Source: a virus (taxonomy: Duplodnaviria; Caudoviricetes). Taken from it: a DNA stretch of 64,000 nt. Below, piece after piece: positions 5,197 to 50,836 of this stretch. The notes below the pieces were generated by a model. It saw nothing but the letters and a program-made list of their open reading frames with translations, did not search any database and was not told the origin of the DNA. Location of the stretch: IMG/VR virus record IMGVR_UViG_3300037608_000261, positions 1-64,000 of that record, one strand, 5' to 3'. Position 1 is the stretch's first letter. Every line of letters starts with the position of its first letter. The position numbers and the translations under genes were made by a program.

Positions 5197-5224
5197 AAAT
5201 AAGATTAAACGAGATATGCATAAA

Positions 5225-5274
5225 AATGAAAATACAGGAAAAACGAAGGATCGCGATAGAAAAACGAAGGATTA
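5225..5274 (-). promoter_or_regulatory. Putative late promoter upstream of the portal
   Basis: Two GAAAAACGAAGGAT direct repeats (5238-5251, 5259-5272; 21-bp period) and a TATTTT -10 candidate; 46/50 identical to 50385-50434. Confidence 0.75.
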
Positions 5275-5286
5275 AGAAAAGAGGGG

Positions 5287-5316
5287 AAAAACAGGGGCCG
5301 GGAAACCGGCCCCTGT
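5287..5316 (-). terminator. Intrinsic terminator upstream of the portal promoter
   Basis: Perfect 11-bp stem ACAGGGGCCGG/CCGGCCCCTGT with a 4-nt loop, followed by a T-run on the minus strand. Confidence 0.7.
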
Positions 5317-5348
5317 GCCAAGAACCTGCCAAGGCAGCTTATAAATGC

Positions 5349-5392
5349 TTTAATCAATTTTGTCGGAGGTTCGAATCCTCCACGGCCCACCA
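5349..5392 (+). other. 3' half of a tRNA (probably Lys-TTT); att-core-like site
   Basis: TTTAATCAA...GTCGGAGGTTCGAATCCTCCACGGCCCACCA has part of the anticodon loop, the T-arm, the acceptor 3' strand and CCA. No 5' half or D-arm is present upstream. Confidence 0.8.
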
Positions 5393-5551
5393 ATACTTAT
5401 AATGAGAATAACAAAATTACTTACGTATAGCACATGCAAAGGGAGTATTGGGCTTTTTGACCGTATTCTGAATTACGGAAAGAAAGGTTGGGTTTATAGA
5501 TAGCACCATGGCTGCAAAGAACGAGACCTGACCCCTTGCCTTTCCCCTTAC

Positions 5552-7810
5552 CTATGATAAGAAATCAATAAACTTTGTAAAACTTCCCTCAGACCGTTCA
5601 AATGCTTTCTCAATTAGGGACATTGGTTTACCAAGCTTGTATCTTTTTTGGTAGCCAGACGCATCGTATTTTACATCAATCAGAACTCCCGCTTTTTTCA
5701 GGACTGGCAGGACTTTATCTTCAAATTTGCCATATGATCTCCCTAATCTTAGTCTGAAGATGTTCTCATTTAACTGCGTCGATTTTAGGAACCTTCTCAT
5801 GATACGTTCTGTCAACAAAATTTCCTCGTCGATCTCGTTGGCCGGTAATGATGCCGTTTGGTATTGGTCTAGATACTTAATCTCAAAACCATGCCCTGCA
5901 AGTAGTCTGAAAACCTGATCAGGACCAAAAAAGCTATTTTCAGAATCGTTGTCATACACACTTCTGATATCACAGTCTAATAGTTTGGCCCCTTTCACTT
6001 CGGTTGTTTCATAAAGATCCAGTCTATCAAACCGACATTGTTCAAAAGTGCAATCAATCAACTTAGTATTCTCTAATCCAGAACTTTGAAAATAACAATT
6101 CTTGAAGGTTTTATTCGACAATTCAACCGCATTCAAAGAGTTCGGCGGCAAAATGAGTCCTGAAACTGTGGTAGTCTCTTTCATATCACCTGCCAAAAGC
6201 CTGATAAATATGGCTCCCAGATTCTCCCGGACAAAAGATACCATACCTTCTTTTTGGCAAAGAGCCACTAACAGTTCCTCCGCGGTAGCCGTCCTATAGG
6301 CCTTCGACTTAAGACTTTGCACTACAGTCTCGAAAGCTTGTTGAGGCAATATCCCCACTCTCAGCATCTGCATTAACGACGGGCGATCATCAGCTATAAT
6401 CTGATTTGCAAGGGACACCCCGATAAAATAATAGTAAAATTCCTGGTGGTCGAAACTAAAGGAATTACCTACGCCTTCTGTGCGAACAATCAACGCATGC
6501 TGTTTTATACGTTCTTTGATTTGGCGCTGATAGTTAGCGGTGAATCCTTTTGTTTCCGAGAACAAGTCCGCAATGTAGCCCATGACGTCATCCCCTAAAG
6601 ATTGTGTGTTGTTTATCCACATTTCTTGGGCAACTGAAGACAGTAATTCACGGTGCTCATCGACGGTTAATATGGGCCGAGCCACATCACCAGATCGATC
6701 TAACCACTTCGTATTGGCTTCTCTCTGCAATATTGCATCGACAAAATGTTCAAAATAATTCTGTGAGTCTCCGGCCGTAATGTTTCGTGCAATTTCTGCG
6801 AAGTCTTCACTTGTGACGAAGACATCCAGTAATTGCTTCACCAACACTGCTCTCGTGAGGATTGGATGGCTTGGTTGTAGCGCATTTGATAGAGTCTCAT
6901 ATGCACCATCGGGATTGTCAATCAATCGCATAGTAGCATATTCGACAAATTGCTCTCGATCCCATCTTTTCAATGATATTCTTGAAAAAGTCACATAATC
7001 TGATTGAATGGAATCAAAGAGACGAGCTTGCGTTGCGAAGCTTTTATAATCAAAGTAAGCTTTTCTCGCCGCGATCAACACCACCCCTTGTGAGTTCAGC
7101 TTATTCAATAGTTGGCCCAGAGAAGAAAGAGCCTCACCGGTTGAGCTTTCCATAAACATCTCTTCAAATCCATCAAGGGCAGGAACCAATATACCCATTT
7201 TCACCAATTCTATGAAGGAATCGTAATAGAAGACGTTGAACCGAAACCGATTAACTAGGGTGGCTATTATTATATCGTCAAGCCTTAAGAACGGTCTTCC
7301 CCCTAAGGGTATGGGCAATAGCAGCCAGGAAGATTCTTTTCGCTTATATCGTTCTGCCTGAATTCTAGCCAAATGATTAATTAATGTGGTTTTCCCCTCC
7401 CCTGCGTCAGATGTAATGTAGATGACCTGAGACGCCAGGGCATTTCTATTGTCCATCAATGTCTCAATCGCCTCAACAGTGTTCTCCACTTCATTCTGTG
7501 ATTCACTTGGGTCCTTTCCTATGTCTTCCAGAAATGAACCTTGAGGGCACACAAAATTCGGTTCCTGCTCCGAGAAATCTATGATTCTATCCGCCAACAT
7601 TGGTATGCGGGCTAATCTATTCACGATCCACGAAGACATGGAGGTCGACACGCCGTTTTCTTCGACATATAACTCCATATCTTTACGGCGCAACCTTATT
7701 TCAATGAGTTCATCACGGATATTTACCACAATCTCTTTGTTGTCACTTGCAATATCCATGGTTCGATCGGCAAATGAAGCCACAATTCTTTTGAAATCAA
7801 TCACATTCAT
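5552..7810 (-). CDS. STAND/NACHT-like NTPase with C-terminal pentapeptide-like repeats
   Basis: Walker A DAGEGKTT, Walker B LDGFEE, helical domain, then L/F-x-N-C-x-F repeats. Confidence 0.7.
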   Translation of the reverse strand: MNVIDFKRIVASFADRTMDIASDNKEIVVNIRDELIEIRLRRKDMELYVEENGVSTSMSSWIVNRLARIPMLADRIIDFSEQEPNFVCPQGSFLEDIGKDPSESQNEVENTVEAIETLMDNRNALASQVIYITSDAGEGKTTLINHLARIQAERYKRKESSWLLLPIPLGGRPFLRLDDIIIATLVNRFRFNVFYYDSFIELVKMGILVPALDGFEEMFMESSTGEALSSLGQLLNKLNSQGVVLIAARKAYFDYKSFATQARLFDSIQSDYVTFSRISLKRWDREQFVEYATMRLIDNPDGAYETLSNALQPSHPILTRAVLVKQLLDVFVTSEDFAEIARNITAGDSQNYFEHFVDAILQREANTKWLDRSGDVARPILTVDEHRELLSSVAQEMWINNTQSLGDDVMGYIADLFSETKGFTANYQRQIKERIKQHALIVRTEGVGNSFSFDHQEFYYYFIGVSLANQIIADDRPSLMQMLRVGILPQQAFETVVQSLKSKAYRTATAEELLVALCQKEGMVSFVRENLGAIFIRLLAGDMKETTTVSGLILPPNSLNAVELSNKTFKNCYFQSSGLENTKLIDCTFEQCRFDRLDLYETTEVKGAKLLDCDIRSVYDNDSENSFFGPDQVFRLLAGHGFEIKYLDQYQTASLPANEIDEEILLTERIMRRFLKSTQLNENIFRLRLGRSYGKFEDKVLPVLKKAGVLIDVKYDASGYQKRYKLGKPMSLIEKAFERSEGSFTKFIDFLS

Positions 7811-7820
7811 GGTTACTCCT

Positions 7821-8537
7821 TCAAAGGCCCCTTTCGCAATAATCGCTTGGAGCGTATTGTTTGTAGTGTTGAGGGGTTCGGCGATTGGGTTTAGTATGAA
7901 TATGCACTACCTTTGACCCTAACGCAAGAACTGTTCTTATCGTGGGCCAAAAGTCGTCATCGGAGGAGACTATTATTAACGGCGCCGCGCCATCCATGCA
8001 CAAATAAAATAAGTCAGTTGCCAACATTGTGTCGACCAGTTTTTGTTCGCCTCGATATATGAGATTAGACGGCTGCATTGTACAATTCGGTTTTGAGCAT
8101 CTCCCTATATTGATAAAATTAAACACATGTTTTATGGGACAACTAACATCGCCACACCCGTGGTCACCTGGGTCTGCGCAATGCAGATCACTTGGATAAG
8201 ATCTGATTCGATATGTGTGCATCAGCAATTCTTGCGGAGTTATCAGAAGCGACATTGCAAGCTCCATATTGACTATAAGGCTTCCGGCCGCGGAGGAGAC
8301 CGGCAGAACCGTTGGGAAACTAGCCTGGATCTCTGCAGACAACATCTGGGCGCGGCGTGAATTACCAGTCTGATCGCTCCAGCCGCCATAAAGACGAATT
8401 CTCACATTTGAAACGTTTTGTGGGAAATCTGAAGGTGTCAAAATTCCTAAGATCTGTGTAGCAATGGTAGCAAGGCCCCGTGATTTATGTAGTGGAATCA
8501 AATTATCATAATCTACAAGAATTTGAAGCATCAGCAA
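7821..8537 (-). CDS. NYN/PIN-family ribonuclease-like protein
   Basis: VDYDN, EQKLVDTMLATD and VSSDDDF acidic motifs typical of NYN/LabA folds. Confidence 0.75.
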   Translation of the reverse strand: MLMLQILVDYDNLIPLHKSRGLATIATQILGILTPSDFPQNVSNVRIRLYGGWSDQTGNSRRAQMLSAEIQASFPTVLPVSSAAGSLIVNMELAMSLLITPQELLMHTYRIRSYPSDLHCADPGDHGCGDVSCPIKHVFNFINIGRCSKPNCTMQPSNLIYRGEQKLVDTMLATDLFYLCMDGAAPLIIVSSDDDFWPTIRTVLALGSKVVHIHTKPNRRTPQHYKQYAPSDYCERGL

Positions 8538-8736
8538 TTATGCCCGTTAGTCGGTCGGGTGCTTAAGAACGCACCCAGACTATTCTCCAAGCTCCGCAAA
8601 CTCTGTTCCGTTTCTAAATGAAATCAATTTTCCCTCACATGTTGAATTATCAAATTTCTTCCTATTATATCCATTATCACCTGTAATGCTGCATGTCCAG
8701 AAAAATCCGGTAGTGGGTCAGTTTGAAATAATTAAT

Positions 8737-9162
8737 TTAATGAGGATAGAGATCATCACCAACAAAAATGATATGAAAAACATCATTTTGTCTAATTCCA
8801 GCTACACGACCGCCGTGTGAGTACGTAAATACTGTTAGTGAATTGACATCCTCAGTAACTATATCGGGGAAAGATTTAGCGTGAAACTGTTTTATAGGTA
8901 TATGCTCGTATCCCAACTGTTTTCTATCTGTTGAGGAAATATCTTTCCATTGTTTTTGAGATATCAATAAAAGTGTGTGTGCGAAATCAGCTTTGTCTTT
9001 GGGTTCACATTGGGACAAGCAATATGTTTTTCCGTATGGAATATTATAGAAAGAAAATATTGGTTTTTGGGAATCATAATCTATTTCTATTTGTTCTCGC
9101 TCTTTGTAGCGCTCATTTTCTTTATTAGCTTTCTTCTTCTTTAATAAGCTTCGTTTATCCAT
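8737..9162 (-). CDS. Putative RelE-fold toxin (MAG6450-like)
   Basis: FSF...CLS...LGYE.IP...RVAGIRQNDVFHIIF pattern; overlaps the 3' end of the Panacea gene. Confidence 0.55.
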   Translation of the reverse strand: MDKRSLLKKKKANKENERYKEREQIEIDYDSQKPIFSFYNIPYGKTYCLSQCEPKDKADFAHTLLLISQKQWKDISSTDRKQLGYEHIPIKQFHAKSFPDIVTEDVNSLTVFTYSHGGRVAGIRQNDVFHIIFVGDDLYPH

Positions 9163-9607
9163 CCTTCAGCCAAGATTTTAAATCTATTTTCATCGCTTCG
9201 GGTGTTATTTCATTATTAATACCTGCGTTTATATAACATTGGTCGGCATGTGCTAATTGCATAAGGCGAACAGCAGAATATTGACCAAAGAAATTATAAA
9301 TACCATCAAGGAAATCCTTTGTTTCATCGTCAATGGAAGATGGATTGAAAGCATTCTCGGAAGGGATACCTCCAGCGCCATAATGTTTATATTTACGATA
9401 GAGATCAGGGATAACAGGCCCATATTGCCATGCTATGATTTTATCATCATAAAGAGATGCCCCATATGCTGCAAGGTGAATACCTTGTGCATAATACACA
9501 AGCTTCTGAAGTTTTAAATTAGAAAGTAGCTCTTGATCTTCTTCTTGAGCTTTATAAAGGAAATAATCAGCTATATTAAAAGCAGAATATGTTGGCATTA
9601 TAACCAT
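9155..9607 (-). CDS. Panacea (DUF4065/SocA/GepA) antitoxin
   Basis: LSNLKLQKLVYYAQ and AWQYGPV motifs; start 9607 has an AGGAG SD. Confidence 0.85.
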   Translation of the reverse strand: MVIMPTYSAFNIADYFLYKAQEEDQELLSNLKLQKLVYYAQGIHLAAYGASLYDDKIIAWQYGPVIPDLYRKYKHYGAGGIPSENAFNPSSIDDETKDFLDGIYNFFGQYSAVRLMQLAHADQCYINAGINNEITPEAMKIDLKSWLKDG

Positions 9608-9700
9608 AATCGACCCTCCTTTTGACAAATTATCGTCTATTTGAGCCGCTTATTAATTATTGACATACCAATGAAGGCTTGTCAAGCAGTATGTGAAAAA

Positions 9701-10528
9701 TTACTCAATTAATTCAATAATATCTTCTATATTCCACAAATGATCTGTAACTCCTGCCGCTATTGCCGGTGTTATTCTCAATGTCTGGTGAATACGGCAA
9801 AAGTTATAATACATAAAATGAAGGGCTGCAGCATGAGCAAGGTTTTCTTCTTTCTTTGAAAATCCATTGGTAAGCCTTGTAAATCTTCTCATGCTCATTC
9901 TCATGGTAAGATTTTGTCTTTCAATATAGCTCGTAGATACCTTTTTAAGATCAGGATTGCCTTGAATAACTTTCTTTTCAGTTCCGATACATTGAGAGGG
10001 GCTATATTTTGCTTCATTAAACATTGGTGCACCGTACAACTTTATTAATTGACTGAAATCAATATTAGGCGCGGCGAAAGCATCTTCAACAGCTTCAAGA
10101 TACATCTTGTGACCGTCTGTTGTAAGTTGAACTCTATTACTTAATCTGCTTGCAAGGTTATTCATAAACTCTGTTGCTGTTACTATATTCCTGTTACCAA
10201 CACACCACGAAGGAACAAGTTTTGTATCGGCGCATATAGCGGTGAACGTCCATACATCACCATAGCCAAAAGTATTCTTTCTATCTTCAGGTACATTCTT
10301 GCTTTTAGCATAGCAGAAAGACCATATTTCATCGCATTGAATACGTTTACAAGTTAGATCGTGAAAAGCTTTGCCTTGATATTCAGAACAGACTTTTCCA
10401 ATATCAACGAGCAGTTTAGTGATTGTATTCTTTGATGCCCCTGTCATTCTAACGATAGCACGAATAGAATTGCCTTCCACTAAGGCGGCTATAATTTGTT
10501 TTTGTTTTTCTTTATTTAATCTGTTCAT
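9701..10528 (-). CDS. IS1-family DDE transposase
   Basis: N-terminal HTH; DEIWSF, TTDG and STSYIERQNLTMR motifs. Confidence 0.9.
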   Translation of the reverse strand: MNRLNKEKQKQIIAALVEGNSIRAIVRMTGASKNTITKLLVDIGKVCSEYQGKAFHDLTCKRIQCDEIWSFCYAKSKNVPEDRKNTFGYGDVWTFTAICADTKLVPSWCVGNRNIVTATEFMNNLASRLSNRVQLTTDGHKMYLEAVEDAFAAPNIDFSQLIKLYGAPMFNEAKYSPSQCIGTEKKVIQGNPDLKKVSTSYIERQNLTMRMSMRRFTRLTNGFSKKEENLAHAAALHFMYYNFCRIHQTLRITPAIAAGVTDHLWNIEDIIELIE

Positions 10529-10534
10529 ATTTAC

Positions 10535-10563
10535 ATTATATGCTTGAGCGGTTATGTTGTCAA
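10535..10563 (-). promoter_or_regulatory. Sigma70 promoter of the transposase, probably leaderless
   Basis: TTGACA-17 nt-TATAAT, then 6 nt to the ATG; the spacer carries an operator-like motif. Confidence 0.75.
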
Positions 10564-10601
10564 GCCTTTTGGTCAGTTTGCTAAATTTCGCAAATTAAAT
10601 A

Positions 10602-10630
10602 TTGACAAACAAATATTGATATGCTATTTT
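10602..10630 (+). promoter_or_regulatory. Sigma70 promoter of the HTH-peptidase gene, probably leaderless
   Basis: TTGACA-17 nt-TATTTT, then 6 nt to the ATG at 10637. Confidence 0.6.
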
Positions 10631-10636
10631 TTGTCT

Positions 10637-11776
10637 ATGAACGTTGAACAGTTCCGAACACCGGGCCAGCTTATAGATGCTTTAATAACTGAACGCAATT
10701 GGAGCCAAAGAACTTTAGCTATTATCGCAGGGATAGAAGAAACTGGTCTCAATAAAATCATCACGGGTAAAAAACAGGTTACAGCGGAAATGGCTATATT
10801 ATTGGGAGAAATTTTTGAACTTCCCGCAGAGAAATTTCTGGACTTGCAGAAGGCTTTCGACCTCGCACAAGCACGCATCATAGCTCGTCCCGATCCAAAT
10901 CGAGTTACTCGTGCACATATTTTTGGTGGATTACCTGTATCGGAAATGATTAAACGGAGATGGTTAGATGCTACAGATGTCAAAGATATTCCTAAAGTAG
11001 AAACGGCTTTAGCGAAATTTTTTGGTGTAAATTCTATTGATGAAATAGAAATACTTCCTCATGCAGCAAAGAAGACAAAGACATCTACCCCGGTTACGCC
11101 CGCTCAATTAGCATGGATTTATAGAGTAAAGGAAATCGCAAGTGAAATGCTTGTTGCTCGGTATTCTTCGGCTGGTGTCCAAAATGCTATCAAGCTTTTG
11201 AGCAGTTTATTATCTTCCCCTGAATTGTCTCGTAAAGTACCACGTATTCTCGCAGAGTGCGGAATACGATATGTCGTTGTAGAGACTTTATCAGCAGCAA
11301 AAATTGATGGAGTTTGTTTTTGGTTGAATGATTTTGCGCCTATAATAGGGATGTCAATACGATATGACCGTATTGATAATTTTTGGTTTGTTCTAAGACA
11401 TGAGTTAGAGCACGTTCTCCACCATGATGGTCGATCTGCCATTATGTTGGATACAGAACTTGAAGGAGAACGAGCAGGCACTGGTGCCGGTATCTTGGAA
11501 GAAGAACGTATAGCGAATGAAGCTGCCACGGAGTTTTGCGTATCCAAAGCTAAGATGGACAGCTTTGTAGCACGAAAATCGCCCTTTTTCCATGAAAGAG
11601 ACATCCTTGGTTTAGCAAACACCTTGCACATCCACCCCGGTTTGATAGCAGGGCAACTACAACACCGAACAGGCAGATATGATCTCTTCCGTAAGCACTT
11701 AGTTAAAATCCGCCATGCTATCGCCCCAGGGGCGATGGTTGATGGATGGGGAGACGTTGCTCCTATCGGACTATAA
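10637..11776 (+). CDS. XRE/HigA-type HTH fused to ImmA/IrrE (DUF955) metallopeptidase
   Basis: N-terminal HTH (PGQLI...WSQRTLA); DNFWFVLRHELEH HExxH motif. Confidence 0.85.
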   Translation: MNVEQFRTPGQLIDALITERNWSQRTLAIIAGIEETGLNKIITGKKQVTAEMAILLGEIFELPAEKFLDLQKAFDLAQARIIARPDPNRVTRAHIFGGLPVSEMIKRRWLDATDVKDIPKVETALAKFFGVNSIDEIEILPHAAKKTKTSTPVTPAQLAWIYRVKEIASEMLVARYSSAGVQNAIKLLSSLLSSPELSRKVPRILAECGIRYVVVETLSAAKIDGVCFWLNDFAPIIGMSIRYDRIDNFWFVLRHELEHVLHHDGRSAIMLDTELEGERAGTGAGILEEERIANEAATEFCVSKAKMDSFVARKSPFFHERDILGLANTLHIHPGLIAGQLQHRTGRYDLFRKHLVKIRHAIAPGAMVDGWGDVAPIGL

Positions 11777-11786
11777 GGAGGACTTA

Positions 11787-12266
11787 GTGTTAACAAAAAA
11801 GCACCAATTACAAAACTTCATTCGGTATTACAAGGAGCAAACAGGAGAAACACAGGTAAACATGAAAGATGTGGCTCGATTTGCGGTATCAAATGGATGG
11901 AAACTACCATCCCCTTCCGATCCGCTTGATATATTGGCAAAAGATTTCTCTGATGCTGCCCGTGAAGAGATCAAGCATGATAAAAAAACAGGGCATCCAT
12001 ACCGCGTAAATCATGCAATTAGGCAAGGACGAGGACAACAACTTCATCTCTGGATTGATATTGATGAAGCCCCGCGTAAACCAATGCTCAAGAGTTTGAT
12101 ACAGCGACGAGAACAAATGGTTGGCGATGGTCTACAACTCACTTATGACGCTGATCATTGGAATAGTGTTCATGAAAGAGAAGAACCTATCATTATGCCT
12201 TTAGATTTTACGGACGATATTGAGTGGCGCAAAAATGCCCCAAGAGAAAAAAGGAAAGCGGTTTAA
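11787..12266 (+). CDS. Hypothetical protein
   Basis: GTG start with an AGGAGG SD, directly after the HTH-peptidase gene. Confidence 0.65.
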   Translation: MLTKKHQLQNFIRYYKEQTGETQVNMKDVARFAVSNGWKLPSPSDPLDILAKDFSDAAREEIKHDKKTGHPYRVNHAIRQGRGQQLHLWIDIDEAPRKPMLKSLIQRREQMVGDGLQLTYDADHWNSVHEREEPIIMPLDFTDDIEWRKNAPREKRKAV

Positions 12267-12514
12267 TCATCGGTTTTTTTCCATCTTGCTTGAGCAGCTA
12301 ATGTTGCTATTTCTTTTCTTTGTTCTTCTGTTAACTTCTCCGCTCTTGCTTTGCCTCCCTTCAACCCTCCTAATCTTCCAAGGGCTACGGCAGCGGGGTT
12401 CTTTTCTCTGATGGGTTCTATTGGCGGGGCTTCTTCGGTAGGCTTTGATTCTGTGGTTTGATCTGTGATAAACTTAGCAAGTTGATTTATATCGGTAGGG
12501 GTCTTTTTCTTCAT
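12263..12514 (-). CDS. Small basic KGG-motif protein
   Basis: NPAAVALGRLGGLKGGKARAEKL motif; has its own promoter at the element end. Confidence 0.75.
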   Translation of the reverse strand: MKKKTPTDINQLAKFITDQTTESKPTEEAPPIEPIREKNPAAVALGRLGGLKGGKARAEKLTEEQRKEIATLAAQARWKKTDD

Positions 12515-12520
12515 GCTCTA

Positions 12521-12549
12521 AGTATAGCATGAGCGGTTAAGCATGGCAA
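12521..12549 (-). promoter_or_regulatory. Sigma70 promoter of the KGG protein, probably leaderless
   Basis: TTGCCA-17 nt-TATACT, then 6 nt to the ATG; shares the spacer motif with the transposase promoter. Confidence 0.7.
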
Positions 12550-12818
12550 GTGCAGAAAAAATGAAACTCACCCACTATCGAAAAATCCGCAAAATTCACT
12601 TTCAGGAAGGATTTATTGTCTACAGACATTCCAGGGATAAAAACTAATTATCCCCTACCAGTTTTTTTCTTATAAATCCCTCTATCGTTCCTATAGCTTT
12701 CGGTAGCTCTTTCCTTACCACCAGTTCATCTTTGTCATTGTAAAACAGCACATACGTCTTCCCATCTTCGTCTACGAATTCCATCTGGTAGTATTTGCTC
12801 TCGTCGGTATCCAAATTT

Positions 12819-13382
12819 TTAATACCTCGGCATCAGCTTCTCTGAATGTTGCTTATGTTTCACGAAATTGTCAATATATATACCGGCAAGCTCTGAATTT
12901 TTGAGTATCAATAAATTTTCTGCATTCTTCTCTTCTGCTGCTTTAGAAAAGTTAAATGAACCTGTAATAACAATCTGCTTATCGATAATAATGATCTTAT
13001 TGTGGGCTATAGAATGAGCATCATCAATATATGTAGGCACTTTCATATTTGCCAAAAAAGTTGCTGATGTATAGCTTGCTCCTTGTTTCTTCGGTTCTTT
13101 TCTTTGTGATTTATCAACTATGACTTCAACATTCACTGCTCTTTTTTTAGCATTAACAAGGGCTTTTGCAATCGGCGCTGAAGTAAATGAATATGCCTGA
13201 ACAAGAACTTCCATTGTAGCATTATCAATTTGTTTTACAATAGCAGCGGTGCAGCCCCCGTCAGGGCTGAAATAAACATGGGCAGGGGTGTTATTGAGGG
13301 TAAGATCAAATGAATGAGATGGAGTGCAGAAGACCGATAAAATTAGAAGGATAAAGAGAGGGGTTAAAACTGTTTTTCTCAT
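12819..13382 (-). CDS. Phospholipase D-family nuclease (Nuc-like) with signal peptide
   Basis: Single HKD motif HNKIIIID...GSFNFS...NAEN; N-terminal signal peptide from MRKT at 13382. Confidence 0.85.
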   Translation of the reverse strand: MRKTVLTPLFILLILSVFCTPSHSFDLTLNNTPAHVYFSPDGGCTAAIVKQIDNATMEVLVQAYSFTSAPIAKALVNAKKRAVNVEVIVDKSQRKEPKKQGASYTSATFLANMKVPTYIDDAHSIAHNKIIIIDKQIVITGSFNFSKAAEEKNAENLLILKNSELAGIYIDNFVKHKQHSEKLMPRY

Positions 13383-13463
13383 GAAGATCTCCTGATATGG
13401 ATTTATGAGCATTATAGTTCAAGGAATTGGGGATGTCAAAAGGGAAAGTGTTGGTTGTTTTTA

Positions 13464-13928
13464 TCAGTCAGATTTTCTGTGGGACATACCCGGATTGAAA
13501 TATCCATCAAGTTTTTCCAAAGCTTCCATTCTTGCCTGAACTGCCATATTGAATGCCTTCTCTTCACCGTATTTGTTTATTGAGAATTTCTTTTGTTTTG
13601 TCTTGCCAGGTACAGGTGACCACGTGGCCATCCAATACCAACGGTAATTACCTTCTTTATCAGGTTCATTGTTTCTACAGTGACATACTCCTGGAATACC
13701 TGATTTGCAATTACGTTTTACAATAGAACAGAATTCTTTTAGAGTCAGAGGATCATATAGGGAGAGAATTTCATTTAGATATTTCTTTGCAGCGGCAAGA
13801 GCTTTATTCTTACTCCCATATGTGGCATCACTGAAAGAACCGAAGTGTTTCTTGTTTTTTCGGGATATGGTTACTACCCATGAATGGGTACGGGTTTTAT
13901 CATTATCTATTCGTGTAATACCGTACAT
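13464..13928 (-). CDS. AP2-domain DNA-binding protein
   Basis: Two AP2-like units (GI.R...W.V....FS...YG...AL..AK; SGIPGV...W.ATW...FS..KYG..AF..A...R). Confidence 0.7.
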   Translation of the reverse strand: MYGITRIDNDKTRTHSWVVTISRKNKKHFGSFSDATYGSKNKALAAAKKYLNEILSLYDPLTLKEFCSIVKRNCKSGIPGVCHCRNNEPDKEGNYRWYWMATWSPVPGKTKQKKFSINKYGEEKAFNMAVQARMEALEKLDGYFNPGMSHRKSD

Positions 13929-14117
13929 GACTCATATATCATAAAATAAATTCTATTCCGAAACATTGAAAAACACTTGTTCATATGCAATTAGGGGATA
14001 GCAGCAAAATTGCTTTGTTGAAACAATTAATAATAATAGACAGTTAATCATTGACGGATATGTTTCTGATATGGTTAAAAATACGAAAAATAATTCTTGC
14101 ACCTTCAGGAGAAAAAC

Positions 14118-14393
14118 ATGACAAAGATAGACATTGTAAATAACCTATATGATAGATTGGGCCTTACGAAACAGGAGTGTGCCGATGTAGCAGATAGATT
14201 CTTTGAGATTATAAAAGAAACATTGGCAAAAGATGAAGATGTAAATATTTCCGGTTTTGGTAAGTTCACGGTGAAACAGAAAAATGCCAGGAGAGGAAGA
14301 AATCCTCAGACAGGGAATAAGATACAGATTGAGGAAAGGAAGGTACTACTTTTCAGGTTGAGTAAAGTTCTGAATGAGAAGGTAAATGAATAA
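14118..14393 (+). CDS. ihfA: Integration host factor alpha-like (HU/IHF) protein
   Basis: MTKIDIV...VNISGFGKFTVKQKNARRGRNPQTG signature; AGGAG SD. Confidence 0.85.
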   Translation: MTKIDIVNNLYDRLGLTKQECADVADRFFEIIKETLAKDEDVNISGFGKFTVKQKNARRGRNPQTGNKIQIEERKVLLFRLSKVLNEKVNE

Positions 14394-14605
14394 CCGGAGA
14401 TCAGCTTTTGTTAATTGGAATAATAGTGGTGAAAATAGAGGTTGTTGACAGCACCTGCGAAGCGTGGGCTGCGTGATTTTGCAGAGGCAAAGATTACCAG
14501 TTAAAACGTACTTCTTTGCCCTTAATGGGATAATTATTTTTGTCACCTACGACTAAGTAATTAATAATAATAATTGAGTTATCGATAATTACTAACTGAA
14601 ATGTG

Positions 14606-14664
14606 GTAGAACAGAAGGCTGTGCAGCGTGGCCGTTTTGAATATGCAGGAGCGCCTGGTTATGC
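14606..14664 (-). other. Degenerate attC-like site 3 (59 bp)
   Basis: R'' GCATAAC contains the stop codon of the 89-aa gene; R' GTTCTAC; arms pair weakly. Confidence 0.45.
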
Positions 14665-14928
14665 CTTTTTGGTCTTATCTTCCGACTTATTTAATTCCCA
14701 ACTTTGATTTTGAAAAACGTCATATCCATAGCTTGTGTAGTGGCCACAGGTGCAAGCAATGCTATGAAAAGGCATTGATGCGTCTTGTGTGTGCCGGTAA
14801 AGCGAAGGATCGCAATCTCGCGGAGCGCGCCCTCCGTATTTTGATATCTCTCTATCACGCCCGCAATGGAAACATCGGATGTAGCGCGGAATTTTACGAG
14901 ATTTCGTAGGCATTATATTTTCTCCCAT
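14659..14928 (-). CDS. Small Cys-rich cassette protein (CxxC...CxCxH)
   Basis: Lies between two attC-like sites; probable start 14913 after a GGAG SD. Confidence 0.55.
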   Translation of the reverse strand: MGENIMPTKSRKIPRYIRCFHCGRDREISKYGGRAPRDCDPSLYRHTQDASMPFHSIACTCGHYTSYGYDVFQNQSWELNKSEDKTKKA

Positions 14929-14938
14929 AATATTTTTT

Positions 14939-14995
14939 GCTTAACAACAAAATTACCCGCCGACGAAGGAAGTCGGGTCCATTTTGTTGTTAAGC
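14939..14995 (-). other. attC-like site 2 (57 bp)
   Basis: R'' GCTTAAC and R' GTTAAGC are exact complements; AACAAAAT/ATTTTGTT arms, bulged bases, CCGAC/GTCGG inner stem. Confidence 0.8.
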
Positions 14996-15007
14996 GTTTC
15001 TTTTTCG

Positions 15008-16099
15008 TCATTTCTGAACTTTGCCCTTTGCACGGAATCGGATAGGAACCGCCAACAAGTTTTCATAAACAACACGAGCTTGATTTAGAAGATCGTCATA
15101 GGTGATTACCTTTATATGCCCACGACGACTGAAATTTTCCTCATCTAATCTCTTTTCCAATTCAGGTGAAAGCTGCGAGTGACGACCAATGACAACGAGC
15201 CCTTCCGGCCTGCGTATCCCTGGCAACTTGGATTCTGCGTAAGCACGATTATCCGCAATCCATGCCTGAAAATCTCTTAATTGCCCAATAGCGTCGTTCA
15301 ATTCGCTGTGGATTCTACCCTTGACTGTGAATAAGCGGTCGGTTGATTTTTCTATCTCGACTAAGATGTAGGTCCCATCCACCCTCCGGACAACAAAATC
15401 AGTAATAAAATCGTCACCTAATTCGTGCTTACTTCTTAGCTCAATTGCCAGTGGGTCAAGGAATATAGGATGGTCGAATAGAAACTGATGGATTTCCTCC
15501 TCTTTTCCATGCAATGTCGCGAGAAGAGTCTCGAACTGCTCTAAGAGTTGCTTGTTCAATGTGAGGTGCGAATCAAGTAAAAGGGAAAGAAATGCATCTC
15601 GAACAGAATGGTCGCTCTCTTCTTTTACTGAGACCATTGTCTCCATGGCGAAGTTTATTATTAATTTCCTTTGAATCTCGCGATCTATTGCTTGCTCTAA
15701 AAGTAAACCTCTAAGTATTTGAAGCGCATACATAGATAAAACCGGCGTGACAGAAATACCGCATCTTTCAAGCCAGTCAGAAGGGACAAACATCGATTTG
15801 ATTTCAGAAAGGGGGATATGGGCGGCAAGAGCCAAAAGAATTTTCTGGGCATCGGTGCTATGTAAACCTGAAAGAAGATGCTCTTTCAATGAATCCAGCC
15901 CTGACTCACCCCATGCAACGAGAGCCAAAAGTGCTGGTACTGCGATGATTTCATCAAAGAGTCCATCCATCTCTGATAATTCGATTACAAAGGGCAGAGA
16001 TTCCTGTTCATGCTGGCGTGCAAGTAGCGCTATACCTGATAGAACTTCTTCTACAGAAATATGCTGTTGATTGAGTAATTGTCGTATTTCTTCGATCAT
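15008..16099 (-). CDS. Shedu (SduA/DUF4263)-type PD-(D/E)xK nuclease with an extra N-terminal domain
   Basis: EEEIHQFL, DF..., VEIEK, AIGQLRDFQAW and GLVVIGR motifs in the C-terminal half. Confidence 0.75.
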   Translation of the reverse strand: MIEEIRQLLNQQHISVEEVLSGIALLARQHEQESLPFVIELSEMDGLFDEIIAVPALLALVAWGESGLDSLKEHLLSGLHSTDAQKILLALAAHIPLSEIKSMFVPSDWLERCGISVTPVLSMYALQILRGLLLEQAIDREIQRKLIINFAMETMVSVKEESDHSVRDAFLSLLLDSHLTLNKQLLEQFETLLATLHGKEEEIHQFLFDHPIFLDPLAIELRSKHELGDDFITDFVVRRVDGTYILVEIEKSTDRLFTVKGRIHSELNDAIGQLRDFQAWIADNRAYAESKLPGIRRPEGLVVIGRHSQLSPELEKRLDEENFSRRGHIKVITYDDLLNQARVVYENLLAVPIRFRAKGKVQK

Positions 16100-16114
16100 T
16101 TGTCCTATTTTTTA

Positions 16115-16178
16115 GCCCAAAATCATGGCTCACCTGGAGCCTGATTTTTAGGCGATCCGGTGCAGCCGATAGTTATGT
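16115..16178 (-). other. attC-like site 1 (64 bp)
   Basis: R'' ACATAAC just after the stop codon; L'' GGCTGCACC / L' GGTGAGCC with one extra base; R' TTTGGGC (G to T change). Confidence 0.7.
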
Positions 16179-16180
16179 GT

Positions 16181-16732
16181 CTAAATTACATGTGGAACGT
16201 ATCCGGGAATGTTTATTGTGTCGTAATACTTGTTATTAATGTCAATAAGAAGAAGAATGGGATCGCCATCTTTCATGAAGTTGGGAAATACTGCTTTATC
16301 GACTAATCCCATAGTAATTTCTTTATCTCTCCATTTGGCGGGATACTTCAACTCAGTGAAGTTGAACTTATTGTGGGCACACCCGTTCCTGACATGTCGC
16401 AAAAACTGGATATCCGGTTCTTTTGCGATAGCATTATAAGTTTTGGTTTCTTTAAGTGTTTCCCAAGCGGATACCACAAAAATCTTGTTTATTTCGCTGA
16501 AGGAGCTTCTTAAGTTTTTAGGGGAAAGTAGCCCTTGGCTTTCAATTTCTCCTATGATACTCGTAACGTTCAAGTTTATATGCTGATTTGGATTTGTGTA
16601 TGACGATTCAATTGACGCGGTAGGGTAGTTCTTTATCAGTATGGCCTGGACATCTGGAATCCGGAGGGCCATCACACCAAGGCACATTTCCAGATAGGCG
16701 TCATACGTTTCCGAAGTTATGAACTTTTCCAT
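16181..16732 (-). CDS. Hypothetical protein with a HEPN-like RxxxxH motif
   Basis: FLRHVRNGCAH in a helical context; first cassette of the array. Confidence 0.5.
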   Translation of the reverse strand: MEKFITSETYDAYLEMCLGVMALRIPDVQAILIKNYPTASIESSYTNPNQHINLNVTSIIGEIESQGLLSPKNLRSSFSEINKIFVVSAWETLKETKTYNAIAKEPDIQFLRHVRNGCAHNKFNFTELKYPAKWRDKEITMGLVDKAVFPNFMKDGDPILLLIDINNKYYDTINIPGYVPHVI

Positions 16733-16752
16733 TTTGCCTCCATTATTCGTTC

Positions 16753-16803
16753 ACATAACAATTAATATACCAAGTTTGTTTTTCTTCAAATGATATACCA
16801 AGT
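16753..16803 (-). other. attI-like site
   Basis: Core GTTATGT (exact complement of the attC1 R'') preceded by two ACTTGGTATAT direct repeats (16765-16775, 16793-16803). Confidence 0.5.
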
Positions 16804-16970
16804 ACAGGAAAAATCAATAAAAAATTCCTATATTTTCTACAATAATAAACATAAATTATGTTGTTATGTGGTTTTTGCTGATATTACGTTGTAAAAACAA
16901 ATATACCTTTTTGTGGTCTTTTTGCATGAGGGCTTTGAATAGATGATTACCACATGAAACATTTCATAAT

Positions 16971-17094
16971 TTTAGATTCGTCCGCCTATCGCTTTCAGGA
17001 AGTTATTTATGCCGCAGGGAAAAATCATGAAGTGTGCATTTCGGGGAGAAAGCAGTGCATCCGGCAAAAACCACGTAGTATCAACCACAGGAGC
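16971..17094 (-). repeat. 46-bp-period repeat, two units plus a partial one
   Basis: Units at 17063-17094, 17017-17048 and a partial unit ending at 17002 match the reverse complement of the 50.5-kb array. Confidence 0.7.
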
Positions 17095-17309
17095 TATACA
17101 TAACAAATCCTGCTTTATCTCCTAATATAGCCAGTTACACCATGTTTTCCTTTTACATGTTTTTCTATCCCCCAAGGGTATCTTCAATATTGCATATGAT
17201 TGTTCGCCAATCAGCATTTTTTAGAGTAAATACCTGTCTTCTGTCTGGCTCCGCTGCATGACGAACTCAATAGTATTGTAATAATCCCGGTAACTCTTTA
17301 TGTTTCGGG

Positions 17310-17714
17310 CTATTCTCGCATTTCCATGTCTGGGTCATTTGAGGCAAATTCAACCGCATCTCCGCCGTCTATGGTCTCCATAACATGGAATGGATCATCA
17401 ATCATGTTTTTGGCCATTCGCATGTCCTCATAGAGGAAGGCGGCCATAATATTCAATTCCGGCTTGCCGTAATCCATAGTTGAAAACCATTCTTGATCGA
17501 GAAAATCTCCAAAAGAGAAGTCTTCTTTATCAATATAGATTTTCTTCAACGGCCACCAGTATGGCCCATAGGTCCTGTAGCGAAGTGGGCTCTTTAGAAG
17601 AATGACCTTTAGATTTGCCGAAAACTTTTCTATCCACTGATCAAGGGGCTGCTTGGCCACGGCCTGCATTAAAAAAGGTTGTAAATCGTTTTCCGAGGGC
17701 TTATAGATGTCCAT
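17310..17714 (-). CDS. ulx: Ulx-like anti-restriction accessory protein
   Basis: LLKSPLRYRTYGPYWWPLKK resembles P1 Ulx; located downstream of darB as in P1. Confidence 0.7.
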   Translation of the reverse strand: MDIYKPSENDLQPFLMQAVAKQPLDQWIEKFSANLKVILLKSPLRYRTYGPYWWPLKKIYIDKEDFSFGDFLDQEWFSTMDYGKPELNIMAAFLYEDMRMAKNMIDDPFHVMETIDGGDAVEFASNDPDMEMRE

Positions 17715-17848
17715 AATGTCTCCTTATGTCTCCAGTTCCTGAATCACCTTTATTTTTCCGATAAAGTATCCGGCTTCGTCTATATTTGCAACTGCTTTTA
17801 TGAGCTGTACCATTTCACATTTCACTTTGATGCTCGCCATCGATGGGT

Positions 17849-17876
17849 AAAAGTGGCCGCCGCAAAGCACGGCCAC
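17849..17876 (-). terminator. Possible weak intrinsic terminator
   Basis: GTGGCCG/CGGCCAC 7-bp stem followed by TTTT. Confidence 0.45.
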
Positions 17877-17900
17877 CTGGTTATATTTTCTCAACATTGT

Positions 17901-18701
17901 TTAGGATGCGGCAATAAGCCCATGTCCTTCAAGTCTGGCAATAACTGAATTTACGGCATCCTTGATTCCGTTGACGTTGCCAAGGAAAGTATTCATTTCC
18001 TCAGCAGATACGAACCCGTAACCACTGGTCGTGGCCGTTCCTGATACCGCCGTACCATCCGCAACATGCAAACCCGGAGTAGCTACAGCAATGTTTCCGG
18101 TCTCGTCAAACACAGCAACCTTGCCCGTAGGAACAGGATCGACCGGGACCTTTGTTGCGAGCCCGGACAAGCTCTGATTGTCTGATCCGGGAGCGTGGGA
18201 GTTTGTAATGGCACCCTTCACTGCCGCCACCGTAACAGCATTCGGGCCACCCGTGTCAAGCCCCTGGTCTGTTCCCTGGGTATGAACCTCGCTTATTTCA
18301 AGAGATGTATTGAGCCATACCGCAGCACCTTCCGTTGCATCGACACAGCGGTAAACCTCGTGAGGTGTTGCTGTCGTGTTGATCCAGACAGACCCCACAG
18401 AATATCCTTCCGTCTCGTCATTGTCGGCGTCCGGTGTAGTGGTTGCCCCGTAATTGTCCTTCTGGAAAGGCATGTACTCAGGAAGTACACCATCATCAAA
18501 GGTTGCAACTGAAGTAACCACCATGGCTGGGCGTTTCGCCTTCACCGCCGCTGTGATCACAATCGCATGTTCTGCCGGAACATTGACGGAAATACCGGCG
18601 CTTCCAATTGTCCCGCCCGGCACTTCAAAATCAACGCCATACCCGATGTAATGCACTCCCGATGAACCGTAATTCTCAAACTTCAAAGCTGTTTTCAGCA
18701 T
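17901..18701 (-). CDS. Virion structural protein, possible head fibre/decoration
   Basis: GYSVGSVWIN...YRCVDATEGAAVW module; C-terminal NSVIARLEGHGLIA trimerisation-like end. Confidence 0.45.
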   Translation of the reverse strand: MLKTALKFENYGSSGVHYIGYGVDFEVPGGTIGSAGISVNVPAEHAIVITAAVKAKRPAMVVTSVATFDDGVLPEYMPFQKDNYGATTTPDADNDETEGYSVGSVWINTTATPHEVYRCVDATEGAAVWLNTSLEISEVHTQGTDQGLDTGGPNAVTVAAVKGAITNSHAPGSDNQSLSGLATKVPVDPVPTGKVAVFDETGNIAVATPGLHVADGTAVSGTATTSGYGFVSAEEMNTFLGNVNGIKDAVNSVIARLEGHGLIAAS

Positions 18702-18715
18702 TTCTTAAAACCTCC

Positions 18716-21700
18716 TTATGCAATTAATTCATAGATTACCTTCAAGTCAGTCGATGAAGGCATGTGCCACCAGGCTCCTTTGAACGCTTCCCCCGCATCC
18801 GAAAAGAACTGAGCCCCATAACGCGCTTTCAGAATGTCTTTTGTCCTGAAAAGCACACCGCTTTTTCCATTTCTGTCCTGGAAAAACCACTTCGCAAAGG
18901 GTTCCAAAACGGTCCCCCTGCGCCCTTTAAACCCTGGCAAAGCCATGCTTGTAATGTTGGTTTTGACCGTAATGCCGATTTTGGCAAACGCTTCTATTAC
19001 TTCCTGCGGGACCTCCTTATAGCGGGGATCACTCTTCAGCGCTTCCTGAGCGGCCCGCTCTTTATCGGCTTTCTTGGCTGTCACCGCCGATTCCAATTCG
19101 GCCACTACCCCGTCAACATATTGATGGGCGATCTGTCTGATTTGCTCGGCATTATCTCCCAATTCTATTGTACCAGCCCCTATTACGTCAGGAAGTCGGT
19201 ATTTCAGGTTTGTCATAGTGGTAGAACCGTCTAAAACAGATCCAACAATGGCGTCAAAACCTCCCTTCTCTTCCAGGAAAGTAGCCCATCTTTTGGCACA
19301 ATATTCACGTACTTCGACCTCTGTTGCTGTTTTCCCATAGCCAAGAGCAACTTCGTTGTAGTTGTTGCCGAACAATAGCCCCATTATGCCCGAAATATAG
19401 TAGCCCGACCCACCTTCACGCTTTACCGCAAGGTAGGCTTCACATACTGCCTTGCGAAACCCCTCGTTGTTTGGTTCGGGGTAGACGATAGCTGCCGCAA
19501 GGCCCTCAGTAGAATACCCGTCAGCAATGTTTATTGCTCCGTCCTGATTGCGAACGACATATATGGAGTGCTGATCCCAATTGATCTCTTGGCGGTGATC
19601 GAGAAACGTCTCCTTATCAATCCTGCCATCAATGAGCGAATTATAGTCATGCGGTTCCGACAATGCCTTTTTAAGGTTCAGCTCTTTCTCGGAATAGGAG
19701 ACCTTTTTCAACCCTTTGGCTTCCAGTTTAGCCAGACTGCCAGCTAAGTACCACCCCCAATTACCCGGAACGCGCCCCAAGTCCATTGACCCGATCCGAC
19801 CCGTGATATCTTCATACTTGAAGGCCCGGTGCACCGGATCAACCTCTGAAATCTTTATGATTCCATGTTCGTAATCACTCTTATATTCATAGCAATCACC
19901 AACAGCAACTACTTTGCCGGCCAGGGTCACACAGGCGCTTTCGGGTTTGTCTATCAGGGTTTCATCAAAGGGAAGTTGCCCTTTCTTTGCCTTTTGTTTA
20001 AGAAGACCAGCAGTCTGCTTCACTGTCGATGTCAGCCTGGTCCGTCTCTCATCAAATGTCTGATCCAGTGTTCCAAGCTTTACCGTAAAATTCTTCAGGG
20101 TTTGCTGCTTTTCAACAATTTGGCTGCCCAATCTCATTCGATCATTCCCTTCGGCAGCCGACCACCTTTCCTGAAGCCTTTTGATTTCTGCCTCAAGATC
20201 AGGAATTCTCTTAGTCAGACGCTCGCGCTCTGCCTGCCTTGCCACATCAAGGCCAGCAAGGTCCATAGTTGCCTGCGAAAGTATCTGTAACTGGTTTGCA
20301 AGTCGCCTTTGTTCTTTTTCGGCCTCTTCTGCCTGCTTCGCCGCCAGTCTATCCAACCGTCTCTTTTTGGCTGCCTCGGGATCTGCTTCAAGCATATCCA
20401 TCATCTCATCTTGGCTTAAGGCATTTGCGTTTTCTGCCGTCGCGTCGGTACCGCCAAAGAGGTCGCTCATCCAATTTGATTTTGCTTTAAGTATCTCAAG
20501 ACGGTATGCATCGAAAGACCCTTTCCCGCAATAGTAGTAGATGTGAATCATGGGGGCAGTGTTGCCCTGTCTGACCCCGCGCCCGTTTCTCTGTTGGATA
20601 CTCGCAGGCGTCCACGGAAGGGTTAAATGGTGAATGGCGGTAGTGCCTTTCTGAAGATTGACCCCGACTTCCGCCTTTTTGTTACAGATCACAAATTTCA
20701 GGCCCCCTGAATTATACTGGTCAGAAATTTTTTGCAGGTCCTCCCCCTGAGCTTCCTCAGCGTTAATAATACCGATCAATTTGGCAATGGTAGGAATATG
20801 GTGCACAATTAGTCGCAAAATCTTTTGGTGCTGTGATTTCTCTTCCGTAAAGATCAGTTGCTTTCCGTCCGCCTCAAGGTCCGACCGTAGGTTTTCAATT
20901 AGACGTGCATATTTTGGCATGAGGGGGTGTGAAACATTTTCCATGGCAATGTTATTTTGTGGGATTCGATCCACAACCAGGTTCTCGTATTCTTTTGGGA
21001 AGACCACAACATAGCTTCCGTTTTCCGTTCGTGAAGTAATTCTAAGCTCTACAGTGACTTCCCGAGATTTACCCTTGTTCATTTCAGGATCAAGTCCGAG
21101 TGCATCCATTTCCTCGTCATCGAGGACACGCTTAACCTTGATAGATTGGGGAAGACTTTTTACCAGATCATCTACATTGGGCTTGTCCCCTTCCCGGAAC
21201 ACAAATGTCATTGTCTTATTATAGAGGTCCATGTCCGTCGTGACCCTATCCATGTCTCGGATAACGGAAAACATGCTTTCCTTCTTTTCCCCTCGACCCG
21301 GTGGTTTTGCAGCATCCTTTGCCCGGTCGCGCAAGATTGCATAGACCCGTTGCTGTTCCTCGGTGAGTTCGATATTAAGACTTGTCTCCTCATGGGGAGG
21401 CAGCTTGATCTGATCGGGAAAGTCCTCTGCACTTTTCATATTTACATATTTGTGGAACATGCTGCGCAACCCATCAAGATTTTGAAATCCCGTCAGCCCA
21501 TCTTTAGACTTTATGCCACCATCAACCATCATTTTATCTACGCTCGTGATTTGCCCGAATACGCGGATGAAGTCGTCTGGGGTATATATGCCGTAGCGTT
21601 CAAATTCTTCTAAAGGGCAGGTATAGGAAAGCATGTTGAATATCTCGAATGGGCTGTTCGTAACCGGGGTAGCGGAAAGCATGTAGGCCCCTCGACCATT

Positions 21701-50529: not shown

Positions 50530-50760
50530 CTTCCTGAAGTTGATACTGCGTGGTTTTTGCCTTAGATGCAACACTTCTTCATGTAATTCACACTTCGTGG
50601 CTTTTGCCTGAAGCGTAATGTTCTTCCTGAAGTTGATACTGCGTGGTTTTTGCCAAAGGCACTGCTTTCTTACCGAAATGCACGCTGCTCGGTTCTTTCC
50701 TTAGTCACAAACTTCTTCCTGAATTTTATACTGCGTGGTTTTTGCCTTAAATACAATGCT
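50530..50760 (+). repeat. Five-unit tandem array: 32-bp degenerate repeat plus 14-15-bp linker
   Basis: Units start at 50530, 50577, 50623, 50669 and 50715; consensus CTTCCTGAAGTTGATACTGCGTGGTTTTTGCC. Confidence 0.85.
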
Positions 50761-50836
50761 TCAAATCGGACTCTACAACACTGATAAAAATTCCCCTTGA
50801 CATAATGTCATAACAGGAAGAAAATGTGAAAGAGCA

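Follow-up and report, generated by a model that had tools for sequence, protein, structure and literature searches.

An integrase-less array of integron-type cassettes in the accessory island of an uncultured P1-like phage

The window, which is the first 64,000 nucleotides (64 kb) of the IMG/VR virus record IMGVR_UViG_3300037608_000261, contains a cassette array that is genuinely of the integron type. The segment at positions 14606-16869 is probably a fragment of a bacterial integron, in which an attI-like leader is followed by three promoterless cassettes bounded by attC sites but without an integrase (a cluster of attC sites lacking an integrase, CALIN), and it is located in the accessory and defence island of a P1-like phage. 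The array is regarded as integron-type because it has homology to an array in an uncultured Desulforhopalus (L112), because one of its sites (site B) is a canonical attC and because there are metagenome contigs with the same cores joined to other genes. It most likely came from a bacterial integron and would now be defence cargo of the lysogen. A preliminary description, made from the sequence of the window, had proposed an integron-like cassette array. The anatomy of the cassettes, site B and the homology to L112 agree with this, whereas the sites turned out to be unequal, with one of them (site A) at chance level.

The complete record comprises 81.9 kb (approximately 82 kb), is labelled as a provirus and is 90% complete. 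The operons on its minus strand encode a DarB-like protein of 2112 amino acids, a tail sheath, a baseplate, a tail fibre and a T4-type portal, and this combination therefore places it among the P1-like myoviruses. The record represents an uncultured, temperate, P1-like phage. The sequencing runs listed for it are coal and groundwater metagenomes, with no RNA run among them. Profile searches with TIGR02249 and PF00589 gave no integron integrase (IntI) or other tyrosine recombinase anywhere in the 81.9 kb, while 14 of 14 control genomes were positive. The absence of an integron integrase, first described for the window, thus applies to the entire record, and the array is not adjoined by intI as in a complete integron.

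Cassettes, attC-like sites and the related chromosomal integron

Three open reading frames (ORFs) are found head to tail on the minus strand (16181-16732, 15008-16099 and 14659-14928 in the ORF list), each followed by an element of 57-64 bp with ends of the AAC...GTT type. The resulting cassettes are 638, 1176 and 333 bp long and hold one co-oriented ORF each, which starts close to the R' box (ATG 20, 15 and 10 nt past R') and ends shortly ahead of the R'' box or within it (the stop codon is 2 and 12 nt away from R'' in the first two cassettes and inside it in the third). The stop codon previously noticed inside R'' is that of the third cassette, where TAA (14661-14659) is part of the GCATAAC of site A. 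The three cassettes had also been described as each having a core-bounded palindrome of 57-64 bp. This is correct for the ORFs, the lengths and the AAC...GTT ends, but only site B combines exact boxes with a strong fold: the RYYYAAC and GTTRRRY consensus is matched exactly in B, with one mismatch per box in C and with one and two mismatches in A.

Site B, the canonical attC of the Shedu cassette, is located at 14939-14995 on the minus strand (57 bp, GCTTAAC...G/TTAAGC, where the slash marks the point at which a cassette begins). It is built up by perfect arms of 15 bp and an inner GC hairpin, and its fold of -19.9 kcal/mol (z -6.4) was not reached by any of 200 shuffles. A scan for strict R boxes and folding found no other strict-consensus, strongly folding site in the 82 kb. 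The palindromic-arm score is 17.5, while in 84 kb of shuffled DNA it did not exceed 9, and it supports B alone among the sites. Searches for its exact 15-mer in viral contigs rendered chance matches only, none of them with the partner arm.

Site C, the attC of cassette 1 (16115-16178, minus strand, 64 bp), has the R'' box ACATAAC, an L box consisting of GGCT-[G]-CAC and GTG-AGCC, and the R' box T/TTGGGC. It folds to a moderate degree (z -3.1 to -3.7), chiefly owing to an inner hairpin of 39 bp. On the gene-sense strand, site B, site C and the host attCs all have an unpaired additional G in the 5' arm. Site A (14606-14664, minus strand, 59 bp, GCATAAC...GTTCTAC) is a weak, terminal attC-like element that was picked up neither by the home-made covariance models nor by the arm score, and it may be a decayed terminal site. 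Judged by sequence alone, site B is the only convincing one of the three.

Among the attC scanners based on R boxes and folding, the strict version missed the true attC of L112 and the relaxed version was too loose. A covariance model (R1) was built from a single host attC because MAFFT could not align the attCs in register, and a second model (R2) was built from the matches of R1. With filters off over the whole phage, R1 placed site C first (14.1 bits, E 0.14) and site B second (14.0 bits, E 0.15). R2 had narrowed to a single host family and found no significant match in the phage. Both models have poor sensitivity and miss several genuine host attCs, and the weak E-values therefore neither confirm nor reject the sites.

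The closest relative of the Shedu gene outside the phage (78% at the amino acid level) is found in L112 (OY781976.1), the chromosome of an uncultured Desulforhopalus known as a metagenome-assembled genome (MAG). An intI gene (L112 positions 1382-2581) with 372.7 bits on TIGR02249 (cut-off 265) ends 3.4 kb upstream of this Shedu gene and is divergent from it. The order from intI to Shedu is an attI-type junction (G/TTAAAC), a first cassette, a second cassette with a 5' end (TTGGCT) complementing its own R'' box (AGCCAAC), and the Shedu cassette from G/TTGGGC. The Shedu cassette of the phage starts with the same TTGGGC. Nucleotide homology between the phage and L112 spans the Shedu gene and site C and ends at the AAC of R'', so that both the gene and the site have counterparts in an array beside an integron integrase. 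When the 81-nt spacer with site C was aligned to the L112 attC the score was 25, compared with 8.7 +/- 1.6 for shuffles, none of which reached it in 2000 attempts, and the pairing in the L box is conserved by one compensatory change (G:C in the phage, T:A in L112).

The distance between a GTTGG-type R' box and the Shedu ORF is 15-20 nt in the phage, L112, L185/L187 and L191, and attC-like sites are located 3' of the Shedu gene in the relatives L119, L190 and L201. By their sequence, both the Shedu cassette and site C belong to a type known from chromosomal integrons of Desulfobulbales-like bacteria. IntI above the cut-off is present in 169 of 301 genomes of this likely donor order. L112 and the phage have the homologous Shedu cassette, the preceding attC and the 5' end of the cassette in common. 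Unlike the phage, L112 has intI, attI, a group II intron and a Shedu gene truncated by IS66, and its neighbouring cassettes are unrelated to those of the phage. No homologues of cassettes 1 and 3 were found in arrays beside an integron integrase. The group II intron (L112 positions 3606-5500, with RVT_1 and GIIM domains and matches to Rfam RF00029, RF02001 and RF01998) is antisense between the ORF and the R' box of the first cassette; its place in the attC is that of the attC-targeting group IIC introns.

The gene in cassette 2 (15008-16099, minus strand, 363 amino acids) was previously suggested to encode a Shedu-type nuclease, and the C-terminal SduA domain is well above the curated cut-off (PF14082 3.1e-18, 66.9 bits compared with 27; PADLOC SduA PDLC00389 3e-37). 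Residues D234, E248 and E250 are invariant among 18 relatives. An identical protein is encoded on three contigs.

The protein of cassette 1 (16181-16732, minus strand, 183 amino acids, motif RNGCAH) is plausibly HEPN-like, as judged from its motif and its predicted structure. It belongs to a family of 39 unnamed members, and R115, N116 and H120 are invariant in the 28 aligned sequences (RNxxxH), in keeping with the conserved Rx4-6H motif of HEPN nucleases. This part of the earlier HEPN assignment stands. On the other hand, the Pfam match is under the cut-off (HEPN_LA2681, E 0.078, 12.8 bits compared with 27). PADLOC gives a match to a Cas13b HEPN profile (E 0.0015). The AlphaFold (AF2) model has a pLDDT of 92.8, and its best matches in VIA-align to the HEPN domains of Las1, SO_3166 and LsoA (Z 5.2-5.8) and to RnlA (Z 4.5) are weak, being below the reliable level for helical bundles. 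Neither a sequence profile search against PDB nor Foldseek rendered any hits.

Cassette 3 encodes an orphan protein of 89 amino acids that is rich in Cys and His (14659-14928, minus strand). The suggestion that it binds zinc is based solely on the Cys/His pattern; no Pfam family was found at E up to 10, and a protein atlas gave weak, unnamed neighbours only.

The leader and the origin of the array

The leader (site D, 16753-16869, minus strand) ends with G/TTATGT, where the first cassette begins. Two observations in the preliminary description were confirmed here. The GTTATGT (16759-16753) is located 20 nt upstream of the first ATG and complements the ACATAAC of site C (16178-16172) exactly, and it is preceded by two direct repeats of 11 bp (family D3, ATATACCAAGT at 16766-16776 and 16794-16804, reading ACTTGGTATAT on the minus strand). 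These repeats are 28 bp apart and end 7 nt before the GTT, and there is a third, weaker copy at 16892-16907 (D4). The leader also has perfect terminal inverted repeats of 10 bp, CACATAACAA and TTGTTATGTG, separated by 99 nt (I12). One of the arms contains GTTATGT and the other overlaps an iteron-like motif also present at 50.5 kb. The arm score of 9.0 equals the shuffled maximum and the fold is not significant. From its sequence features the leader looks attI-like, or it may be a degenerate, AT-rich attC. Leader DNA gave short chance matches only in 187 genomes of the donor family, and a 20-mer from the leader gave two matches in 401 genomes of the order, which is at chance level and with neither match near intI. 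The exact patterns of the leader and of the site C core were not found in IMG/VR.

Logan contigs from four groundwater runs were compared over positions 12000-19000. Contigs from three runs have a match confined to the core of site C (16130-16164). Their flanks are different: on one side an R' box (GTTGGAC, GTTGTGT) precedes a ribosome-binding site (AGGAG..) and ATG, and on the other side there are other R''-type ends. In two runs (X5 and X6) there are contigs matching 16752-16913 at 5-10x the depth of the phage. Below 16750/16752 these run into two different ORF starts, and at 16913 they diverge from the phage; the depth and the divergence together indicate that they probably belong to another replicon. 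The abundant form of the leader lacks 16774-16874 and resembles attI because its approximately 60 bp consist of two direct repeats and then GTTATGT, without a palindrome. Contigs that match the phage in other runs have the same array, and one of them (X4) covers 14376-15295 with zero differences. A joint between 16178 and 16753 in run X5 was considered as a cassette excision but was discounted, having only 22 letters on one side and lying between repeated 8-mers.

Several observations weigh against an integron origin. The fold of site A is no better than that of shuffled sequences (z +0.6 to +0.8), so folding is strong in B, moderate in C and at shuffle level in A. Site C pairs poorly in its R box. 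In textbook attCs the extra base is a G on the bottom strand. The extra base here is a G on the sense strand and consequently a C on the bottom strand, unlike in the textbook sites. The insensitive covariance models gave either E-values of 0.14-0.15 (R1) or nothing significant (R2), the HEPN-like gene was not found in the 201 genomes of the donor order that were searched, and there is no sequence similarity between the leader and the attI regions of the integrons compared with it. Finally, no listed contig from an independent run bridges the array and the phage backbone in one piece.

It is very improbable that the array has no link to integrons, that its hairpins are intergenic terminators or regulatory palindromes of the phage and that the AAC and GTT ends arose by chance. 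Sites B and C do hold terminator-like stems with runs of T, site A cannot be told from chance, the E-values from the home-made models are weak, and CACATAAC overlaps a family of iteron-like repeats that is present at 50.5 kb too. However, read in the direction of the genes both hairpins are followed by runs of A and not of T. Site C is moreover homologous to an attC beside a true intI, its core is found elsewhere next to other flanks with R' box, ribosome-binding site and ATG, and site B is exact in both consensus boxes at the classic length of 57 bp. That the cassettes are served by a phage-type recombinase other than IntI is barely credible given that the PF00589 and TIGR02249 profiles, which detected all the controls, match nothing in the 81.9 kb and that the homologous array adjoins a canonical IntI.

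A more far-reaching explanation is that the leader (16753-16869) is a functional attI on a phage-plasmid, where a host IntI, working in trans, would insert and excise cassettes time and again. Copies of the phage would then differ by whole cassettes, the alternative first genes in groundwater would be other versions of the locus, and the phage would be a mobile platform. The attI-like anatomy of the abundant short leader, the at least two other ORF starts after the same leader at 16750/16752 (X5, X6), the common occurrence of IntI in the likely donor order and the position in a hotspot of the phage group are all in line with this, but it is nevertheless considered unlikely. The variant contigs, with their higher depth and their divergence at 16913, most likely derive from another replicon, while the phage contigs from other runs have the same array (for example X4, 14376-15295), and neither the leader nor the site C core was found in any relative in IMG/VR. 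The array was found in none of the related phages that were recovered, six of which have no island at all at this spot. The preliminary description had envisaged that the phage captures and swaps cassettes at a platform of its own, and had pointed to a comparison of the locus across related phages; neither the single array seen in phage contigs nor the six empty sites speaks for such exchange.

If the array is a fragment of a bacterial integron, as seems probable, the block could have been taken from an integron in the host or in a neighbouring bacterium, either as one piece or via IntI at a secondary site. The cassettes would be expressed from the leader region and their products might protect the lysogen against other phages. 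Any further movement of cassettes would require host IntI in trans.

The accessory island

The array is part of an accessory island of approximately 12 kb (5330-17310, not assigned to a strand) with a GC content of 0.38-0.41, compared with 0.46-0.50 elsewhere in the phage. In a relative with 75% nucleotide identity (L001), the sequence corresponding to window position 17319 is joined straight to 5273, and the island is therefore an insertion between a gene of 134 amino acids on the ulx side and the portal gene. The same gap is short in six relatives (75-410 bp) and longer in L211 (3.2 kb) and in L217 (6.3 kb), which is more distantly related. This spot, flanked by the Dar/ulx-side genes and the portal gene, is a variable hotspot in this phage group. 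The insert in L211 (6756-10000) differs from that of the phage and has ORFs without any Pfam family.

Apart from the cassette array, the island encodes a STAND-like NTPase paired with an NYN protein, a Panacea antitoxin, an IS1-type transposase, a PLD nuclease, an AP2 protein and HU. The NTPase has 752 amino acids and pentapeptide repeats and is located beside the NYN-domain protein; the segments 5552-8537 and 8700-12588 cover this pair and its IS1 neighbour. The adjoining IS1-type element carries the Panacea antitoxin and a helix-turn-helix protein. No Rfam match was found within the island.

At the portal-side edge of the island there is the 3' half of a tRNA (5349-5392, T-arm and acceptor end), which may be the remnant of an old attachment site; ARAGORN detected no complete tRNA in the window. 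A piece of 40 bp (14512-14552) between the HU gene and site A is common to metagenome contigs that differ on both flanks, and its depth bin is approximately 2x that of its neighbours. It could be another repeated element involved in recombination or regulation.

Iteron-like repeats with the core GTGGTTTTTGC are found at 16868-17094 and 50530-50762. The core has 8 matches compared with 1.6 expected, including two inverted copies just upstream of the cassette leader, and five units of 46 bp are located upstream of an ORF of 297 amino acids at 50.8 kb. These repeats may be a control element for plasmid replication.

Significance and comparison with known systems

The locus brings together integron defence libraries, phages that carry pieces of integrons and the hotspots of P1-like phage-plasmids, and it does so in an anaerobic community of the subsurface, remote from any clinical setting. 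It points to a concrete route by which a compact Shedu cassette might escape from a chromosomal integron and be spread through phage infection, and the donor lineage of the cassette offers a hint about the host of an uncultured phage. If the leader truly works as attI in trans, phages would be platforms for cassette exchange and more than passive carriers. This phage would in that case be a self-transmissible integron platform without an integrase of its own, with a population that exchanges defence cassettes at the leader.

The earlier remark that integrons are rarely reported in phages is a fair one, although they have been surveyed systematically. In 10,705 phage genomes, Qi et al. 2023 (PMC9892861) identified 17 CALINs besides 3 complete integrons and 1 In0. 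They demonstrated recombination of phage attCs with IntI1, and their cases included an isolate of the Escherichia coli phage P1 (MH445380) with a mosaic of class 1 integrons. The present locus is thus a rare example of a phenomenon already described and not a new kind of system.

The CALINs in that report resemble the present array in having a few attC-bounded cassettes without an integrase in a phage genome. The differences are that the array described here is found in a P1-like phage from coal and groundwater, has Shedu cargo and an attI-like leader, and can be referred to an identified type of donor integron. P1 MH445380 is likewise a P1-type temperate phage with integron material. Its integron is, however, of the clinical class 1 type and has an integrase, attI1 and resistance cassettes, whereas the present phage has an environmental attC and defence-type cargo and lacks an integrase. 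The Vibrio anguillarum prophages in the same study (PMC9892861) are temperate phages with a subset of a chromosomal cassette array, as is proposed here, but they have intIA, homogeneous attCs of the Vibrio type and a known host array, in contrast to the heterogeneous sites of this phage. Defence systems as integron cassettes were described in two preprints from 2024 (bioRxiv 10.1101/2024.07.02.601686 and 10.1101/2024.07.02.601719). Those cassettes are compact single-gene systems like the ones found here, but they are located on chromosomal and plasmid integrons of bacteria, whereas the present cassettes are carried by a phage.

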